Of a DNA stretch of 64,000 bases, positions 312 to 64,000 are shown one piece after another. Made by a program: the position numbers and the translations under genes. The notes below the pieces were generated by a model. That model was not told the origin of the DNA and did no database searches. It saw only the letters and a program-made list of their open reading frames with translations. The DNA comes from Candidatus Methylomirabilis sp. (GTDB taxonomy: Bacteria; Patescibacteriota; DYJS01), in contig DYJS01000001.1 of assembly GCA_020723005.1 (NCBI GenBank), forward strand, positions 25,951 to 89,950. Direction: 5' to 3'. Every line of letters begins with the position of its first letter. Positions within the stretch are counted from its first letter, which is position 1.

Positions 312-620
312 ATGTTTAATATAAAGAAAGTTTTTTCAGCAACAAAACCACCAGCAGTTAATCTAAATAAAAATGGTGATTTTAATTGGACAAATATCTG
401 GACAGAGCTTCCTGATATGATTTCAGTTGTTTTGACGGTAGTTGGTGTTTTAGTTGTGATTTATTTGATTATGGGTGGTTTTAGATATATTACTGCTGGA
501 GGAGACGAAAAGAAAGTTGAGGTAGCGAAGAAAACAATTACAAATGCTATTATAGGTTTGATTGTTATTTTATTGGCATTTGCAATTATGCAAGGTGTAA
601 ATTCGTTAATTCAAGGTTAA
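312..620 (+). CDS. VirB2/TrbC-like pilin-family small membrane protein (paralog 2 of 3)
   Basis: Shares VLVVIYLIxGGFxYITAGGDEKKVEVAKK...IIGLIVILLAF with its neighbours. It has two TM helices and is a small tandem paralog. Confidence 0.55.
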   Translation: MFNIKKVFSATKPPAVNLNKNGDFNWTNIWTELPDMISVVLTVVGVLVVIYLIMGGFRYITAGGDEKKVEVAKKTITNAIIGLIVILLAFAIMQGVNSLIQG

Positions 621-624
621 TTGA

Positions 625-1200
625 ATGATAAAATTATTTGCAAAGCAGGTAAATGACAATAGTTTTGGATTAGGTAGTGTATTTTCTATTAAAGATATAT
701 GGCAATCTATTCCAGATTTCATATCAACAGCTATAATGTTGGCTGGAGTTTTGGTTGTAATATATTTGATAATTGCAGGTTTTCAATATTTATCATCTGG
801 AGGAGATGAGAAAAAAGTTGAGATTGCAAAGAAAAATATAAATTTCAGCATAACTGGACTTGTAATAGTTTTATTTTCATATGCACTTGTTAATGGATTG
901 ATGAGCTTACTTGGAACAAGACCTATGGACAATGGAGATGATACAATTTTTGAATTAAAGGTTTCGGTTGATAACTGTCCACCACAAACAGATATTATAA
1001 GATTTTCTTTTTCTGGTGGGTCTGGAACAAAGTATAGTCAATGTATTTTCTCTTCTAGTAAAGGATCAACAGGTTGGAAAGATTGTCTAGGTGGTTCTTT
1101 TGACACAGAGGGATTAATTGCAGATGATGGAACAGATGAATTTTATATTAAAGCATCTGATTCAGCAGGTCAAACTGCTCTTGATAGTTGTGTTTGGTAA
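625..1200 (+). CDS. VirB2/TrbC-like pilin-family protein with a Cys-containing C-terminal extension (paralog 3 of 3)
   Basis: Same N-terminal two-helix core (VLVVIYLIIAGFQYLSSGGDEKKVEIAKK), followed by about 100 extra residues with 4 Cys (DNCPPQ...C...C...C). Confidence 0.55.
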   Translation: MIKLFAKQVNDNSFGLGSVFSIKDIWQSIPDFISTAIMLAGVLVVIYLIIAGFQYLSSGGDEKKVEIAKKNINFSITGLVIVLFSYALVNGLMSLLGTRPMDNGDDTIFELKVSVDNCPPQTDIIRFSFSGGSGTKYSQCIFSSSKGSTGWKDCLGGSFDTEGLIADDGTDEFYIKASDSAGQTALDSCVW

Positions 1201-11793: not shown

Positions 11794-13360
11794 TTGATTT
11801 TTGCATACTTTTTTTCTCTTTTTTCATCTGTTCAAAATTCAATAACAATAGATGAAGAGTATCATATTGTTCGCGGAATTTTTGCAATACAAACCAAAGA
11901 TTTTAGAATAAACATAGACCATCCACCATTTGCAAATGTTTTTGATGTAATTTTAGTGCAAATTTTTCTCTCACCAAAGTTTGATAAAACAGATTGGTGC
12001 TTTGAAGTTGCAAACAAAGATTGTCTTGCAGATAGATTTTTATTTGAATGGAATAAGGAGAAAATTTGGGAAATTCTTTTCTTAGCAAGAGCATCAAATT
12101 TAATTTTTTTTCTTGGACTTTTAATTTTAATTTTTTTCACAACAAAAAAATTTTTTGGTGAAAAATCTGCTTGGTTCGCCTTTTTAATTTCAATTTTTTG
12201 GCCAAATTTTTTGAGTAGTGGAATTAGCATTACAACAGATATGGCTTCATCATTTTTCTTTTTTACAATTTTTTCTTTTATAATTTTTAATTTTGAAAAT
12301 TTTGAAAAAATCTTTTTTTCAATCATACTTGGAATTTTACTTGGTGCTGGAATGCTCATAAAATATTCATTGGTTGCAATTTTGCCAATAATTATTTTTT
12401 TATATTTTTGGAGATTTGATAAACCAATTTTAAAAGGTTTAATTTCTGCTTTTTTTATGCTTTTTATTATTTCTGCTGGCTATCTTTTTCAATTCAAATC
12501 TTGGAAAGAAACTCCAAAATCAGAAAGTCATACAGAGTGGTATTTGGATTTATTTTTTGGAAAGTTCAGACAAGAAAATTAAGCCTGCAATAAAGTTTTT
12601 TTATGAAGATTTAAAAACTCCTTTTGTGTATTGGTATCGTGGTTTTTTTGATAATGGAATGGGACAATATTCTGGTGTAAGAGAAAAATATAGTTTTTTT
12701 TTAAATGAACAATCTAAAGATGGTTTTAAATTTTATTTTCTTTTCTCTTTTGTTTTCAAAAATCCAATTTCAACAACAATAATTTTTATTTTTTCTTCTA
12801 TTTTTTTACTAAAGAAAAAAAAATTATTGGACGAAGAAAAATTACTTTTTGGAATTTTTATATTTTTAATTTTTATTTTTTCTATAAGCAAAATAAATCT
12901 TGGTTATAGACATGGAATTTTAGCAGATCCTTTCACAATTCTTATCTCTTCGTATATTTTTTCAATTAAAAAATTCGGGAAAATTTTTATTCCACTTTCA
13001 GTTTTTGGTTTTGTCTCTGTGATTTCATCTTTTCCTCACACAATTTCCTATATAAACAATTTGGTTTCTGAAAAAGATAAATTTCATCTTTTTAGAAGTT
13101 CCAACATTGAATGGGGACAAGATGATTTTAGAGCTAAAAAATTTGCAAAATTTTTGGGAAAAAAATCTGAAAAAAAAGTTTACATATATTCTACTTTTTT
13201 AGATTTAGAAAAAATTGCACAAGATTCAGATTCATATATTTTGATTGGAAGCAATTCACTTTCTGGACACAACATAATATCTTCTGAAAAAACAAAAATT
13301 TTACGAGGAAAAATTCCAATTTATGTTTTGTTTGGAAGTTGGTATGTTTTTGAGATTTAA
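11794..13360 (+). pseudogene. GT83/PMT_2-family (ArnT-like) membrane glycosyltransferase split into two ORFs by a frameshift at a T6 run; could be a pseudogene or a homopolymer sequencing error
   Basis: ORF 11794..12582 has the N-terminus ...ITIDEEYHIVRGI...HPPFANVF and many TM segments. ORF 12557..13360 starts with TTG and continues in another frame. The two overlap at tattttttgg (12551-12560). Confidence 0.4.
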
Positions 13361-14797: not shown

Positions 14798-15229
14798 TTA
14801 TTTATTGTCAGATTTAGATTTTTTAAACTCTATTTTTGAAAGTTCTACTTTAAATTCTATTTTATCTTGGAGTGCAATATGAAATAAATTATATGACAGG
14901 TATGGATATAGTGTCATTATCGCAATAAACAAAGGCACTGTTTCTGGATTTTTCGTCAATTCCGTTATTTTATGAATTGATAATGCTGGTAGCATAGCAA
15001 TTAGTATACCAAGCATAGATGCAAAAGCTCTATTAAACAAACCAATTTCAATAATAATTTTTCCTGTTATCCCCGTGATTTTTTCTGGTTGAGTTGCTTC
15101 TATCTGACCATCATTTGGAATGCTTTCTATTGTTCCCATTGGAGCACCACACATCTTACAAATTTCATGAGGTTCTGTATATTTTGTTTTACAATATTTA
15201 CAAATAAATAAACTTGTTTCATTTGTCAT
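14798..15229 (-). CDS. Zinc-ribbon membrane protein, unknown function
   Basis: N-terminal CKYC-x9-H-x2-CKMC zinc ribbon, then two hydrophobic helices. It lies downstream of the conserved TTGACT-(TC)7-TAGAAT promoter element. Confidence 0.5.
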   Translation of the reverse strand: MTNETSLFICKYCKTKYTEPHEICKMCGAPMGTIESIPNDGQIEATQPEKITGITGKIIIEIGLFNRAFASMLGILIAMLPALSIHKITELTKNPETVPLFIAIMTLYPYLSYNLFHIALQDKIEFKVELSKIEFKKSKSDNK

Positions 15230-15282: not shown

Positions 15283-15308
15283 ATTCTAGAGAGAGAGAGA
15301 GAAGTCAA
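15283..15308 (-). promoter_or_regulatory. Promoter-like element TTGACT-(TC)7-TAGAAT on the minus strand, copy C of a recurring motif
   Basis: The reverse complement reads CTCTTGACTTCTCTCTCTCTCTCTAGAATCAAACTTCAAGAAG. It sits about 50 nt upstream of the start of the 14798..15229 gene. Confidence 0.45.
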
Positions 15309-24578: not shown

Positions 24579-24678
24579 AATTTTTTTTAATTAAAATAAA
24601 AATTCAATTTTTATAAAACTCTTGACATAAAAAAAAAAGCATTTAGAAGTTTCACGAATTATTTTTAATAAATTTCAA

Positions 24679-25146
24679 ATGAAAAAATTATTTTTTTTAA
24701 TGGCTTTTTCTTTAGTGTCTTCACTTTCTGTTGTTTCATTTGCACAAACATCAACTCCAACAAGTGGTGTTTCTATTGAATCAATAGATGGAAGAACAAT
24801 AACATCGGACTCTCCTGTTGAAACAACATCAGGATTTCCAAGATTTTGTGGAACATCAAACTACCCAGCTTCATCAGTTCAGGTTAGAGTTGATGGTGTT
24901 GTAGTTGGAAATGTTACGACAGACTCTTCTGGAAATTGGTGTTATACACTTGTTAATGAAGTTTCGGAAGGTTCTCACACATTTTCAGTAACAGTTGTTT
25001 CTGCAGCAGTCACAGATCAAGTTTCTTTTTCAAGAGTAGATAAATTAACAGATACAGGTTCAGAAATAATGATCGCTTTGGCAATATCTTTTGCAATATT
25101 TCTAACATCTGTTGGTGGATATTACTACTTTAAAAGAGTAAAATAA
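24679..25146 (+). CDS. Exported protein with a C-terminal TM anchor and basic tail
   Basis: Signal peptide MKKLFFLMAFSLVSSLSVVSFA. The C-terminus reads ...KLTDTGSEIMIALAISFAIFLTSVGGYYYFKRVK. Confidence 0.5.
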   Translation: MKKLFFLMAFSLVSSLSVVSFAQTSTPTSGVSIESIDGRTITSDSPVETTSGFPRFCGTSNYPASSVQVRVDGVVVGNVTTDSSGNWCYTLVNEVSEGSHTFSVTVVSAAVTDQVSFSRVDKLTDTGSEIMIALAISFAIFLTSVGGYYYFKRVK

Positions 25147-25165: not shown

Positions 25166-25197
25166 TAAAAAGCAGTCGCGAGACTGCTTTTTTTATT
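25166..25197 (+). terminator. Rho-independent terminator
   Basis: aaaaAGCAGTCgcgaGACTGCTttttttt is a 7-bp GC-rich stem with a 4-nt loop and a T7 tail. Confidence 0.6.
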
Positions 25198-25236
25198 TTG
25201 TAATAAATTTTTTAATATTTTTTTTTATAAAAACTC

Positions 25237-25256
25237 TTGACTTCTCTCTCTAAAAT
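25237..25256 (+). promoter_or_regulatory. Promoter-like element TTGACT-(TC)4-TAAAAT, copy B of the recurring motif with a shortened repeat
   Basis: AAAACTCTTGACTTCTCTCTCTAAAATCAAATTTCAAAAAG. Only 8 nt separate the two hexamers, against 14 nt in copies A and C. Confidence 0.45.
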
Positions 25257-25401
25257 CAAATTTCAAAAAGATAATTTTTGAGAAGATTTTAGAATTAAAG
25301 AAAAATATGCTTGATCTTAATTCTTTTTTTAATGATTTAAAAGAACAAATAGTTGGAACTTTTAAAGAAAAAATGTCAGTTTTTTAGAAAAATTTCTTTG
25401 T

Positions 25402-25767
25402 TTGTCATTGGCACCTTTTATTATTCTATACTGGAGAAATGAAAACAGAAAATATAAAGATGTTTCAGAAATAGGAATAAAAATTCAAAATTTAGAAAAA
25501 TTAACTAAAAATATATTTGATTATTTAATTTTTGCAAAAGATCCAAATGATACTTATCAGTTTAGAAAAAACAAAGACACAGCATTCACTGAAAAATTTA
25601 AAGAATTTAAAGAAACAACTGACGAAATTATTAAATTACTGCAAAATCCTCAGAAAAATTTTTTAGATCAAAATTTTTCTTTATTAGAACATATAAAAAC
25701 TACTCTCGCAAATCTTAGATTAAGATTAATGGGAATATTCCAGAAAATGAACTGCTCGTTGCATTAA
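25402..25767 (+). CDS. Hypothetical protein; possibly the 3' part of a gene frameshifted at a T6 run (25380-25385)
   Basis: TTG-start ORF of 121 aa. An upstream 26-codon ATG ORF (25307..25387) would fuse to it if one T were inserted. Confidence 0.3.
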   Translation: MSLAPFIILYWRNENRKYKDVSEIGIKIQNLEKLTKNIFDYLIFAKDPNDTYQFRKNKDTAFTEKFKEFKETTDEIIKLLQNPQKNFLDQNFSLLEHIKTTLANLRLRLMGIFQKMNCSLH

Positions 25768-25864
25768 AACCAAGAAGAGTTGAACGATTTAAAAAATTTC
25801 TTAGAAAAGTTATTTAATTTTGAAATTATAGAACAACCAAAAAGAGAATAAATTTTTTATCTTT

Positions 25865-48294: not shown

Positions 48295-48320
48295 TTGACT
48301 TCTCTCTCTCTCTCTAAAAT
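48295..48320 (+). promoter_or_regulatory. Promoter-like element TTGACT-(TC)7-TAAAAT, copy A of the recurring motif, upstream of the ECF sigma operon
   Basis: AAAACCTTGACTTCTCTCTCTCTCTCTAAAATAAAATCTCAAGACAA. It lies 57 nt upstream of the ATG at 48377. Confidence 0.5.
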
Positions 48321-48376
48321 AAAATCTCAAGACAATCAAATTTTGTTTTGAAAAGTTTTATCATTAAAGAATTTTT

Positions 48377-48826
48377 ATGGATAATAATATTGATTTGGGA
48401 GGAGGAGAAAAAAGTGAATTTGCAATAAGAGGCAAAAGACCGCTTACACCTGCAGAGGAAAGATCTGTCAAAATGGGCTTAGATTTAGAAATCTTACAAA
48501 AATATAATTTTGCAGAAGGAACATCAGAACTAAAGTTAGCTGAGAAAGTTGTTAAGATTGTTAATAGAGAATTTGGGCACAGAGGATCGGAGTTAAATCA
48601 AAACAAGATAGAGATATTATTTCCAGATCTTCATTTGAGTATTAGATATTCTCAAGATTCACAATATTACTTTGAATTATACATATCTTCTGAATTAAAG
48701 AAATTAGGGATTGAAGTTCTTTCTTGTAATTTTGAAATAACTGAAGATGATAGGGGTAGAGACAGAATGTTTATTAAAAAAATTGTTGTAAGAAAATATG
48801 TATCTCCTATTCTGCTTCCATCATAA
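48377..48826 (+). CDS. Hypothetical protein, first gene of the ECF sigma operon
   Basis: 149 aa with no recognisable family. Its composition is less K/F-rich than its neighbours. Confidence 0.4.
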   Translation: MDNNIDLGGGEKSEFAIRGKRPLTPAEERSVKMGLDLEILQKYNFAEGTSELKLAEKVVKIVNREFGHRGSELNQNKIEILFPDLHLSIRYSQDSQYYFELYISSELKKLGIEVLSCNFEITEDDRGRDRMFIKKIVVRKYVSPILLPS

Positions 48827-48974
48827 TTTTAATGAAATAATTTTTTTAGATTTATTTTAATAATATTTATTATTAAATTGGTTGTTTTAAAATTTATTTT
48901 GAAACTTTTTTAAAATTTTGTTTGTATATATTTTTGAGAACTTTATTTTTTAGAAATCTTTTGTTAATTGTTTA

Positions 48975-49538
48975 ATGAATGCAAATTTTTTGGAAAAAGA
49001 AGTTCTGAAAAAAGCAAAAGATGGAGATGATTCAGCTTTTGAAATTATTATTCGAGAGTTTGAAAGAAAAATTGTTCGTTTTGCATATGGAATGGTTGGA
49101 AATTCTTTTGATGCAGAAGATTTGGCACAAGAGATTTTTGTAAAAGTGTATTTTGGAATCAAAAATTTTGATTTTTCTAAACCTTTTGAACCATGGCTAT
49201 ATGCAATTGCCAGAAATCATATCAGAAGTTTTTTATCATCAAAAAGGGGTGTTTTTGTTTCACTAGAAAAAATTTTGGGAACATTAGAAGAGAAAGCAAT
49301 AGAATCTGAAGATGATATTGAAAAAGTTGATCCTGAATTGAGGATTGCGATGGAGAAATTAAAAACAATTGATAGAGAGATAATTTCTCTCAAATATATC
49401 TCTGAATTGAAGCTTGAAGAGATTGCAGAAAGATTGAAATTGCCTCTTTCAACGGTTAAAACAAAACTTCGGAGAGGATTGAAAAAGCTGGAAAATGATC
49501 TAAATTTGGAAAAATTAAATTTAAGTTTTTTAGAATGA
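48975..49538 (+). CDS. ECF-type RNA polymerase sigma factor (sigma-70 regions 2 and 4)
   Basis: Region 2 (FEIIIREFERKIVRFAYGMVGNSFDAEDLAQEIFVKVY...PWLYAIARNHIRS) and region 4 HTH (EIAERLKLPLSTVKTKLRRG). Confidence 0.8.
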   Translation: MNANFLEKEVLKKAKDGDDSAFEIIIREFERKIVRFAYGMVGNSFDAEDLAQEIFVKVYFGIKNFDFSKPFEPWLYAIARNHIRSFLSSKRGVFVSLEKILGTLEEKAIESEDDIEKVDPELRIAMEKLKTIDREIISLKYISELKLEEIAERLKLPLSTVKTKLRRGLKKLENDLNLEKLNLSFLE

Positions 49539-62364: not shown

Positions 62365-63058
62365 ATGCTTGTAGTAAATTCTATTTCAAAACATATTGAC
62401 ACAGATTTGATTTTTCAAAATGTAATTTTTTAATTTCAAAAGGAGATAAAATTGCTCTGATTGGAAAAAATGGGGTAGGGAAAACGACACTTTTAAAAAT
62501 TTTATCAGAAATTGAATTGCCAGATTTATCAGAAAAAAACTTTTAGAAAAAATAAAAAACCTTTAAATTTCTCTACAGTAACACTTTCTCAAGAGGGATT
62601 TAATTCAAAACAAAAAGTTTTGATTTTATTTATGGAGAAAACAAAGAGAGAATTTTTTGGGAACAAAAAGTTTTTGAGCTTAAAAGAATTCTTAAAAAAA
62701 GTTATTTTGAAAAATTTATGAATGATTTGATTGATGCTGAAAGAAATTTAGCAAAAAATTCTGATGAAATTTTTTCTTCTAAAATTGAAAAGATTTTTGA
62801 ACTAACTGGAATTTCGGAAAAAATTTTATTTTCTGAAATTGATTCACTTTCTGGTGGAGAAAAACAAAGTTAAAGTTGATGAAAATTTTACTTACTTTTT
62901 CAAATTTTTTGATTCTTGATGAGCCAACAAATCACCTTGATCTTTTTTCTATTCAAGAGTTGGAAAATTTTTGTAAAAAATTTTCAGGGTTAATTCTTGC
63001 AGTGAGTCATGATGATGATGATGATTTTGAGAAGATTGGGAAGTCTGTGAAATTATAA
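62365..63058 (+). pseudogene. ABC transporter ATP-binding protein pseudogene with multiple stops and frameshifts
   Basis: Fragments across three frames: MLVVNSISKHIDTDLIFQNVIF*, Walker A ALIGKNGVGKTTLLKIL, signature LSGGEKQ, then Walker B/H-loop ILILDEPTNHLD...VSHD in the 62876..63058 ORF. Confidence 0.55.
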
Positions 63059-63115: not shown

Positions 63116-63745
63116 ATGAAAAATTTTGGAAATCTAAAGTATATTTTTATTGGTGGAGTATTTTCAATAATTTTAATTGTTTCTGCACTTTTTGTTTTTG
63201 GTGAAAAATCTGAAGAGAAAAAAGAAAATAATGCTAAATCTTCTGAAGAGAATAAAATTATTAAAGACAAAAAAGAAGAAGATGAAGTTGAAAAATTAGA
63301 AGAAGTTTCAGAAACTTTTTTTGAAAGAGAAAAAATTAAAGAAGAAGAGAAGGGGAATGAGAATACCAATGAAAATTTATCTAAAAATGGTACAAAAAAA
63401 GATAGTAAATCTGAAAATCAATTAGTTGTTTCGTTAAACGATGCAATGAGTATAGTTGGAAAAAAATTTTTCTTTTACAATGGAGAAATTGAAAGTGGAG
63501 AAGCTGCAAAAATTTCTGGAGCAAAAGATGAAAAGTATTTGCTTTTTATGAATATGGAATCTGGAAGATTTTATTTGATCTCTTACGAAAATTTTAAAAA
63601 ATGGAGCGAAGAGAAAAAAATTCCTTCCAAACTGGAAGTTGCAACAGTAATATATGAAGCAAATATTAAAACAGTTGGAGATTTGATGAGGTCTTCAGAC
63701 GGAATTGAATATTATGAAATTTTAAATTTAGAATCTATGAAATAA
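63116..63745 (+). CDS. Membrane-anchored hypothetical protein with a K/E-rich linker
   Basis: N-terminal TM, a charged low-complexity region, then a globular C-terminal domain. Confidence 0.4.
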   Translation: MKNFGNLKYIFIGGVFSIILIVSALFVFGEKSEEKKENNAKSSEENKIIKDKKEEDEVEKLEEVSETFFEREKIKEEEKGNENTNENLSKNGTKKDSKSENQLVVSLNDAMSIVGKKFFFYNGEIESGEAAKISGAKDEKYLLFMNMESGRFYLISYENFKKWSEEKKIPSKLEVATVIYEANIKTVGDLMRSSDGIEYYEILNLESMK

Positions 63746-63746
63746 T

Positions 63747-64000
63747 TTGCAAAATTTTTTAGAATTTGAAAAATCTGGTTTAAAAATTGAGAGAAAAAAT
63801 TTTGGAATATCTTTTTGGGTTTCTGTTCGTCCAAGATCTCCTGAAACAAAAATTTTGAAGATTGAAAATGAAGTTTTAAAAATCTCTCTTAAAAGCTTAC
63901 CAACTGAAAATCTTGCAAATATAGAACTGATAAAATTTTTGAAAAAAGAGTTTGGTTTTCAAAATGTAGAAATTGTAATTGGAAAAACCTCCAAAAAAAA
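63747..64000 (+). CDS. DUF167 (YggU-like) protein, 3'-partial at the window edge
   Basis: TTG-start frame reading ...ISFWVSVRPRSPETKILKIENEVLKISLKSLPTENLANIELIKFLKKEFGFQNVEIVIGKTSKK, matching the DUF167 pattern. Confidence 0.5.
   Translation, partial: MQNFLEFEKSGLKIERKNFGISFWVSVRPRSPETKILKIENEVLKISLKSLPTENLANIELIKFLKKEFGFQNVEIVIGKTSKK

Follow-up and report, generated by a model that had tools for sequence, protein, structure and literature searches.

A predicted promoter with a short TC-repeat spacer and a probable pseudogene behind it in a cave-biofilm bacterium

The site that we call copy B, in a 64,000-nucleotide stretch of bacterial DNA (the window: the whole stretch that was analysed, whose numbering is used unless stated otherwise), is probably a locked-off and decaying member of a family of promoters tuned by repeat length; the gene behind it is probably a decaying pseudogene and not part of an active switch. 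Each module of the family would consist of two promoter boxes, a -35 box and a -10 box (TAAAAT or TAGAAT), with a (TC)n tract as the entire spacer between them, and of a leader of about 50 nt. Any slipped-strand change in the number of TC units would therefore shift the geometry of the promoter in 2-nt steps and so change its strength. At copy B the tract seems to have shrunk to (TC)4. A spacer of 8 nt would be unworkable for a polymerase of the sigma-70 type and a tract of four units too short for ready slippage, so that the copy would be locked off. The ancestor of the gene behind it (gene B) would have encoded a membrane-anchored protein of about 150-165 amino acids. It now appears to carry a fixed loss of one nucleotide in a zone of A6 and T6 runs, and perhaps a second frameshift near its 3' end.

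Copy B lies on the forward strand. Its -35-like hexamer, TTGACT (25237-25242), sits inside the conserved AAAACTCTTGACT. The (TC)4 tract (25243-25250) is the whole of the 8-nt spacer and is followed by a -10-like hexamer, TAAAAT (25251-25256), recognized by hexamer consensus; the full string reads AAAACTCTTGACT-(TC)4-TAAAATCAAATTTCAAAAAG. The -35 and -10 boxes of this and all other copies are predictions from hexamer consensus alone. The upstream neighbour is a Big_13-domain gene (24679-25146), which ends in a terminator-like hairpin with a T run on the forward strand (25167-25192; an 11-bp stem with four GC pairs and a T tail). Since this hairpin follows the Big_13 gene, copy B opens a separate transcription unit. 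The Big_13 gene has its own promoter-like site (24622-24649; TTGACA-16 nt-TAGAAG), which has AAAACTCTTGAC in common with copy B; its spacer holds an A10 run (24629-24638) that is one of two such runs in the window and is constant across assemblies.

The module occurs five times in 83 kb, a span comprising the window and a 10-kb extension on each side. Copies A, B and C are inside the window, and copies D and E are just past its right end. Copy A, on the forward strand (48295-48325, with hexamers and tract at 48295-48320), reads TTGACT-(TC)7-TAAAAT(AAAAT), a distance of 14 nt from TTGACN to TAnAAT. Copy C, on the reverse strand (15283-15308), reads TTGACT-(TC)7-TAGAAT. The first-pass annotation had described the 8-nt spacer of copy B beside spacers of 14 nt at A and C, and the sequence bears this out. 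Copy D, CTTGACT-(TC)5-TAAAAT, lies about 50 nt past position 64000 (window-equivalent ~64029-64600; L062 10912-11500) and has a spacer of 10 nt. Copy E lies about 3.3 kb past the end of the window on the minus strand (L062/L063 13850-14290), where the NCBI assembly has CTTGACAAA-(TC)6-TAGAAT, or TTGACA-AA-(TC)6-TAGAAT. The conserved block is about 90 nt long: aaACTCTTGACt, the tract, TA(A/G)AATCA(A/G)AT, a small inverted repeat, GATTTTAGAATTAAAGAA and then ATG. Between the -35 box and the ATG, a distance of some 90 columns, copies B and C are 86% identical if the 6-nt tract gap is set aside.

TCTCTCTC has 12 matches in the window against 1.33 expected, and apart from the (TC)7 tracts of copies A and C the window contains no dinucleotide repeat of five units or more. 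A profile of the five copies, built from these same copies so that their own scores are circular, found nothing else similar in the 83 kb. Comparison of genes A to E with one another revealed no paralogy; given that the genes behind the modules are mutually unrelated and lack homologues, what they share is a regulatory module and not a history of gene duplication. A metagenome scan for the module flanks with any spacer returned 22 loci, all of them chance matches in coding DNA without a TC tract. In a genome collection that does not hold the window's own genome, the pattern CTTGACTTCTCTC..CTARAAT gave only two outside matches with pure TC spacers, neither homologous to the module beyond the hexamers. 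One, in a 'Peribacteria' MAG that uses genetic code 25 (L040 231-255), is TTGACT-(TC)6-TAAAAT with a 12-nt spacer; the other, in an Izemoplasmatales MAG (L043 866-899), has (TC)9 then TGC between TTGACT and TAAAAT, a spacer of 21 nt. Both lengths are non-optimal. The presence of pure TC spacers in two unrelated genomes indicates that such tracts arise repeatedly.

The host has a GC content of 27% and the standard genetic code, and no closely related sequenced organism came to light. The best relative of its AspRS is 66% identical and lies on 2.4-kb contigs, and named matches, CPR lineages included, reach about 46-47%. Neither the module nor any shared gene order was found at the loci of two AspRS relatives, the 66% relative on its 2.4-kb contigs and a 55% relative with 59% GC.

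Might the module be something other than a promoter in the first place? Its five copies before unrelated orphan genes, and a leader whose conservation reaches about 50 nt past the -10 box to the start codon, would also suit a dispersed repeat (MITE-like, cassette-associated or a leader RNA) in which the TC tract is incidental. We consider this unlikely, as all copies have the same orientation and a fixed distance to the start codon, terminal inverted repeats and target duplications are absent, and the tract always falls exactly between near-consensus -35 and -10 hexamers. RNA structure in the leader gives this reading no support either. At copy B the leader holds a small inverted repeat or hairpin, UUUCAAAAA-GAUAA-UUUUUGAGA (25261-25283, forward strand), with similar stems at A and C; none of the leader folds reaches significance (z = -0.96 for the copy B hairpin), and a search of Rfam gave the module leader no family match.

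How stable are the tracts? We compared four assemblies: the window itself, NCBI GCA_973415815.1, JGI/IMG 3300000227 and Logan SRR1559028. The assemblies are 99.9% identical to the window. IMG 3300000227 is sample AS07_7, from a sulfidic cave biofilm at 44 C at Acquasanta Terme, sequenced on an Illumina HiSeq 2000 (PMC4288042), and SRR1559028 is a run of the same study. Given this common study, a single Illumina read set probably lies behind all the assemblies, which would then differ through within-sample variants or assembler choices. About ten indels separate the assemblies over 83 kb, every one of them in a simple repeat, whether a T7-T9 run, ATTT, (ATG)n or (TC)n. The TC tracts total only about 60 nt and hold two of these ten or so; they are thus indel hot spots.

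Two copies account for the variation. The spacer of copy C is 14 nt (seven units) in the window and in the NCBI and Logan assemblies and 16 nt (eight units) in the JGI assembly; that of copy E is 14 nt (six units) in NCBI and 16 nt (seven units) in JGI. Given one probable Illumina library, the tracts of C and E are polymorphic in situ. Copy D, with five units, is identical in NCBI and JGI, and each of the four assemblies shows n = 4 at copy B. Two lengths at the same site, 14 and 16 nt, have the look of the off and on states of a switch, for promoters that are themselves predicted. A 16-nt spacer is found at four further intergenic TTGAC promoter-like sites, which precede ORFs 18919, 24679 and 35714 and the pilin genes; by that standard (TC)8 would be the canonical form and 14 nt too short. 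The last of these sites, TTGACA-16 nt-TAGTAT, precedes three tandem T4SS_pilin genes (PF18895) at the left edge of the window (312-1200; L065 9338-10576).

Phase variation is plausible for the module family. All five copies have the repeat between -35 and -10 hexamers of consensus type, and tract polymorphism is seen at C and E and is absent at B. A survey of Haemophilus influenzae used a threshold of at least five units for dinucleotide repeats (PMC2651432). Copies A, C and E, with six to eight units, and copy D, with five, reach that number, and copy B, with four, falls short of it. Slipped-strand phase variation, which the first-pass annotation had proposed for copy B, therefore finds its support in the family, where C has seven or eight units and E six or seven, and not at copy B itself, which is invariant in four assemblies. 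The comparison of lengths that it had called for came out in the same divided way: the copy B tract and the T6 and A6 runs behind it are constant across the four assemblies, while the tracts of C and E differ.

The one site near copy B that does vary between assemblies is a T9 run on the forward strand (25218-25226), 11 nt upstream of the -35 hexamer, which in NCBI and JGI is T5AT7, longer by 4 nt. In addition, the Logan assembly of SRR1559028, made with k=31, breaks at copies B and A (25232-25257 and 48326) and not at C. The module copies share no 31-mers, so shared 31-mers do not explain the breaks, which may reflect heterogeneity among reads or a local drop in coverage. Together with the variation of sister tracts C and E, the 4-nt indel polymorphism so close to the -35 box and the breaks exactly at A and B, if they do mean read heterogeneity, could be taken to say that copy B is an active contingency locus, with a (TC)n spacer and a T6 run that switch often and that the assemblies happened to catch in an OFF/OFF state. 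We think this unlikely. The (TC)4 and T6 repeats are the same in all four assemblies, an invariance tested within one population and at the level of the consensus, with assemblies that probably come from one sample. Four units lie below the usual threshold of mutability (PMC2651432), and copy B would need four more TC units to arrive at 16 nt. Moreover, the window contains 258 T6 runs, of which this is one, and among T runs it is those of T7-T9 that differ from assembly to assembly.

Two other repeat-bearing loci deserve mention in this connection. An (ATG)n repeat at about 63000-63015 (L062 9893), upstream of ORF 63116-63745, has one extra ATG in JGI. A PMT_2-like glycosyltransferase locus (11794-13360) consists of two overlapping ORFs of 262 and 267 amino acids and shows inter-assembly indels at ATTT 12552-12555, at a T7 run (12596-12602) and at a T9 run (12702). 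This may be a pseudogene or a second locus with variable repeats.

What kind of gene does copy B precede? An ORF of 26 codons, ORF1, runs on the forward strand from an ATG at 25307 to a TAG that ends at 25387, and its ATG occupies the position homologous to that at which genes A, C and D start. A second frame, ORF2 (25384-25767, forward strand), is an orphan; two annotation pipelines call a gene of 119-121 amino acids there, from TTG 25402 or 25408. Between the two is the frame-break zone (25368-25385, forward strand), with an A6 run at 25368-25373 and a T6 run at 25380-25385. The first-pass annotation had stated that one extra T in the T6 run would fuse the 26-codon ORF with ORF 25402-25767 into 153 amino acids, and so it would. 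An extra base in A6 yields the same 153-residue product; as the downstream frame is open from 25366, A6 is an equally possible site of the missing base, and T6 cannot be singled out. The further reading of the T6 run as a mark of phase variation finds no support. With 258 T6 and 215 A6 runs in the window and no variation of the T6 run between assemblies, it is not a special repeat. In sum, a single added base in T6 or A6 restores the frame, and the run shows neither the unusual length nor the polymorphism of a phase-variable coding homopolymer.

The two frames nevertheless read as parts of one gene. We scored codon usage as log-odds, with training on 27 long genes. Real genes score 0.62 +/- 0.27 bits per codon and off-frame sequence scores -0.73; ORF1, at 0.63, is typical of a real gene, and ORF2 scores 0.26. 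The coding signal passes from the frame of ORF1 to that of ORF2 at about 25381, so that a coding signature is found on both sides of the break, as is expected of a pseudogene. The fused protein would have one TM-like segment (residues 25-41, VFLEKFLCLSLAPFIIL, mean hydropathy 2.06), which straddles the junction; ORF2 alone has no TM-like segment. The 121-residue call at 25402-25767 is thus probably a fragment of a pseudogene. Toward the 3' end, from about 25711, the ORF2 frame drops to -0.74, a value like that of off-frame sequence, and an open stretch of 31 codons in the third frame (25719-25811, forward strand) scores +0.45. The in-frame TAA at 25765 is followed by 27 further sense codons. 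Here gene B may, perhaps, have suffered a second frameshift.

Homology searches with the fused B protein, the 121-residue ORF and gene A returned only the queries themselves. Searches of 5.8 billion clustered proteins and of 1.84 billion representatives gave no homologue of gene B, so its intact ancestral form cannot be shown; genes A, B and C have no match in Pfam or NCBIfam.

The sister genes differ in condition. Gene A, a 149-residue orphan (48377-48826) downstream of copy A, and gene C, a 143-residue membrane ORF with a Zn-ribbon (14798-15229) downstream of copy C, are intact. Gene D is in pieces of 37, 48 and 63 amino acids in three frames, all of which would be joined by one added base in a G5 run and one in a T5 run; in the fused product, as in that of gene B, residues 25-41 form a TM-like segment, which here spans the first junction. 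Gene E is an open frame of 110 codons with no in-frame start codon. Immediately ahead of an A7 run is a TTG that is out of frame by one base, and A8 would make it a start for this frame. All pieces of genes D and E score as coding. The two shortest tracts, those of B (four units) and D (five units), are both paired with broken genes.

That the breaks in B, D and E all call for a shift in the same -1 direction is one reason to think of recoding: programmed -1 ribosomal frameshifting at the U-run by the UAG, or transcriptional slippage, either of which would produce the 153-residue protein from gene B as it stands. With a stop codon in the A-site, tRNA-Phe on UUU (25382-25384) in the P-site could re-pair one base back. 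We regard recoding as very improbable. The zero frame (codons GUU UUU UAG) has no canonical X XXY YYZ heptamer, and no stimulatory structure lies downstream (folds with z = 0.04 and 0.69). Efficient transcriptional slippage needs runs of about nine or more, and those here have only 5-7 nt. The gene is an orphan, so there is no conservation to appeal to.

An error of sequencing or assembly in the short tract or the frame break could, if systematic, be common to all four assemblies should these come from one Illumina library, as they probably do, and the JGI contig does show several homopolymer differences. We give an artefact of this kind very little weight: four assemblers agree at copy B, Illumina reads are not error-prone at T6, and long conserved genes that contain hundreds of T6 and A6 runs are intact.

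One could also hold that the locus is whole, with ORF1 a leader peptide or small protein of 26 amino acids, ORF2 translated by coupling from TTG 25402 or 25408, and the promoter obeying spacing rules other than those of sigma-70, such as those of an ECF sigma factor. The TTG of ORF2 does lie 14 nt past the ORF1 stop, both frames score as coding, and the calls of 119-121 amino acids come from two pipelines. A spacing of 14 nt is common to three copies, and copy A heads a region with an ECF sigma gene. The gene evidence nonetheless makes an intact locus improbable: the junction splits a hydrophobic segment that ORF2 alone is missing, and genes D and E have the same kind of frame break.

The promoter evidence points the same way. 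The ECF sigma gene (48975-49538), which comes after gene A, has directly upstream of it an ECF-like motif of its own, TGAAAC-N17-TGTA (48900-48926), 49 nt from the gene. This is the sole match in the window, against 0.93 expected there, so that its position alone makes it suggestive. Because the sigma gene has its own ECF-like motif, we refrain from assigning the module to its product. As a candidate ECF-sigma promoter the module was rejected: such promoters have motifs of the AAC/CGT type at a rigid 16-17 nt, whereas the module has TTGACT/TAGAAT-type hexamers and spacers that range from 8 to 16 nt. Spacers of 8, 10, 14 and 16 nt cannot all fit one rigid ECF-type sigma factor, and the hexamers match the housekeeping consensus. 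Genes for TM proteins of 116 and 146 amino acids come after the ECF sigma gene, and an anti-sigma factor may be among their products. These results also divide the first-pass suggestion of a decaying regulon member. Decay is supported by the four invariant units, the 8-nt spacer and the frame break; a regulon is not established, given hexamers of the housekeeping type and a sigma gene with an ECF-like motif of its own.

Besides the lack of homologues of gene B, two considerations speak against our reading of copy B as locked off and decaying. Chief among them, three copies have a spacing of exactly 14 nt, copy E arriving at it by AA+(TC)6, and this length could have been selected for an unusual sigma factor; if 14 nt is a functional spacing, the on/off logic would change. 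The module around copy B is also still well conserved, which is unexpected for a copy long dead.

Repeat tracts that serve as promoter spacers are a textbook switch in Haemophilus, Neisseria and Mycoplasma pathogens. For the hif promoter, van Ham in 1993 is said to have found 14 nt to be off and 16 nt to be on. In the Mycoplasma hyorhinis vlp genes, near-identical promoter and 5' regions carry a poly(A) spacer tract, and each copy varies independently. The family described here resembles vlp in having almost the same promoter and 5' region before several genes, with a simple repeat as the spacer; the vlp genes, however, are paralogous lipoproteins with a homopolymer, whereas here the coding regions are unrelated and the repeat is a dinucleotide. 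The closest likeness in the repeat itself is to H. influenzae hifA/hifB, where (TA)9-11 is a dinucleotide spacer between -35 and -10 that changes in 2-nt steps (PMC2651432). The (TA)4ATTA of hif in H. influenzae R2866, a short degenerate form that occurs in some strains, resembles copy B. Unlike hifA/hifB, the present family has TC as its unit and at least five unidirectional copies of one module before unrelated orphan genes; its host is an uncultivated environmental bacterium of 27% GC, and the module is known from sequence alone.

In Neisseria meningitidis, as would be the case here, repeat length in the spacer tunes promoter strength, through the poly-G or poly-C tracts of porA, opc and fetA; for porA this is described in PMC3639595. 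In contrast to the present tracts, those homopolymers each belong to a single locus, and the organism is a pathogen adapted to its host. Gene B is also like the homopolymer-frameshifted pseudogenes of AT-rich reduced genomes, in which one nucleotide is lost from a short A/T run and the frame remains coding-like. It differs from them in sitting behind a repeat-bearing promoter module and in having no intact orthologues for comparison.

The class of mechanism, simple-repeat promoter spacers as in hif, porA, opc and vlp, is therefore already known. The novelty lies in where the module is found and how it is arranged: several copies with a TC tract stand before orphan genes that are unrelated to one another, the host is uncultivated and environmental, and live copies occur beside apparently dead ones. 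In the library searched, no paper contained both 'phase variation' and 'candidate phyla radiation'. Tentatively, we can go further and picture a CPR-like bacterium of a cave biofilm with at least five phase-variable promoters, in which (TC)n toggles between 14 and 16 nt within one population, each promoter switches a different small orphan gene, and copies that fall out of use end as short tracts with pseudogenes; this wider proposal is possible and somewhat doubtful.

If it is true, bet-hedging driven by repeats would extend from host-adapted pathogens to an ultra-small bacterium of the environment. Copies of functional length, polymorphic copies and collapsed copies, all in one population, make a natural series for the birth and death of such switches. 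Through the module family, five orphan genes also stand out as variable traits of this organism, and several of them code for predicted membrane proteins.
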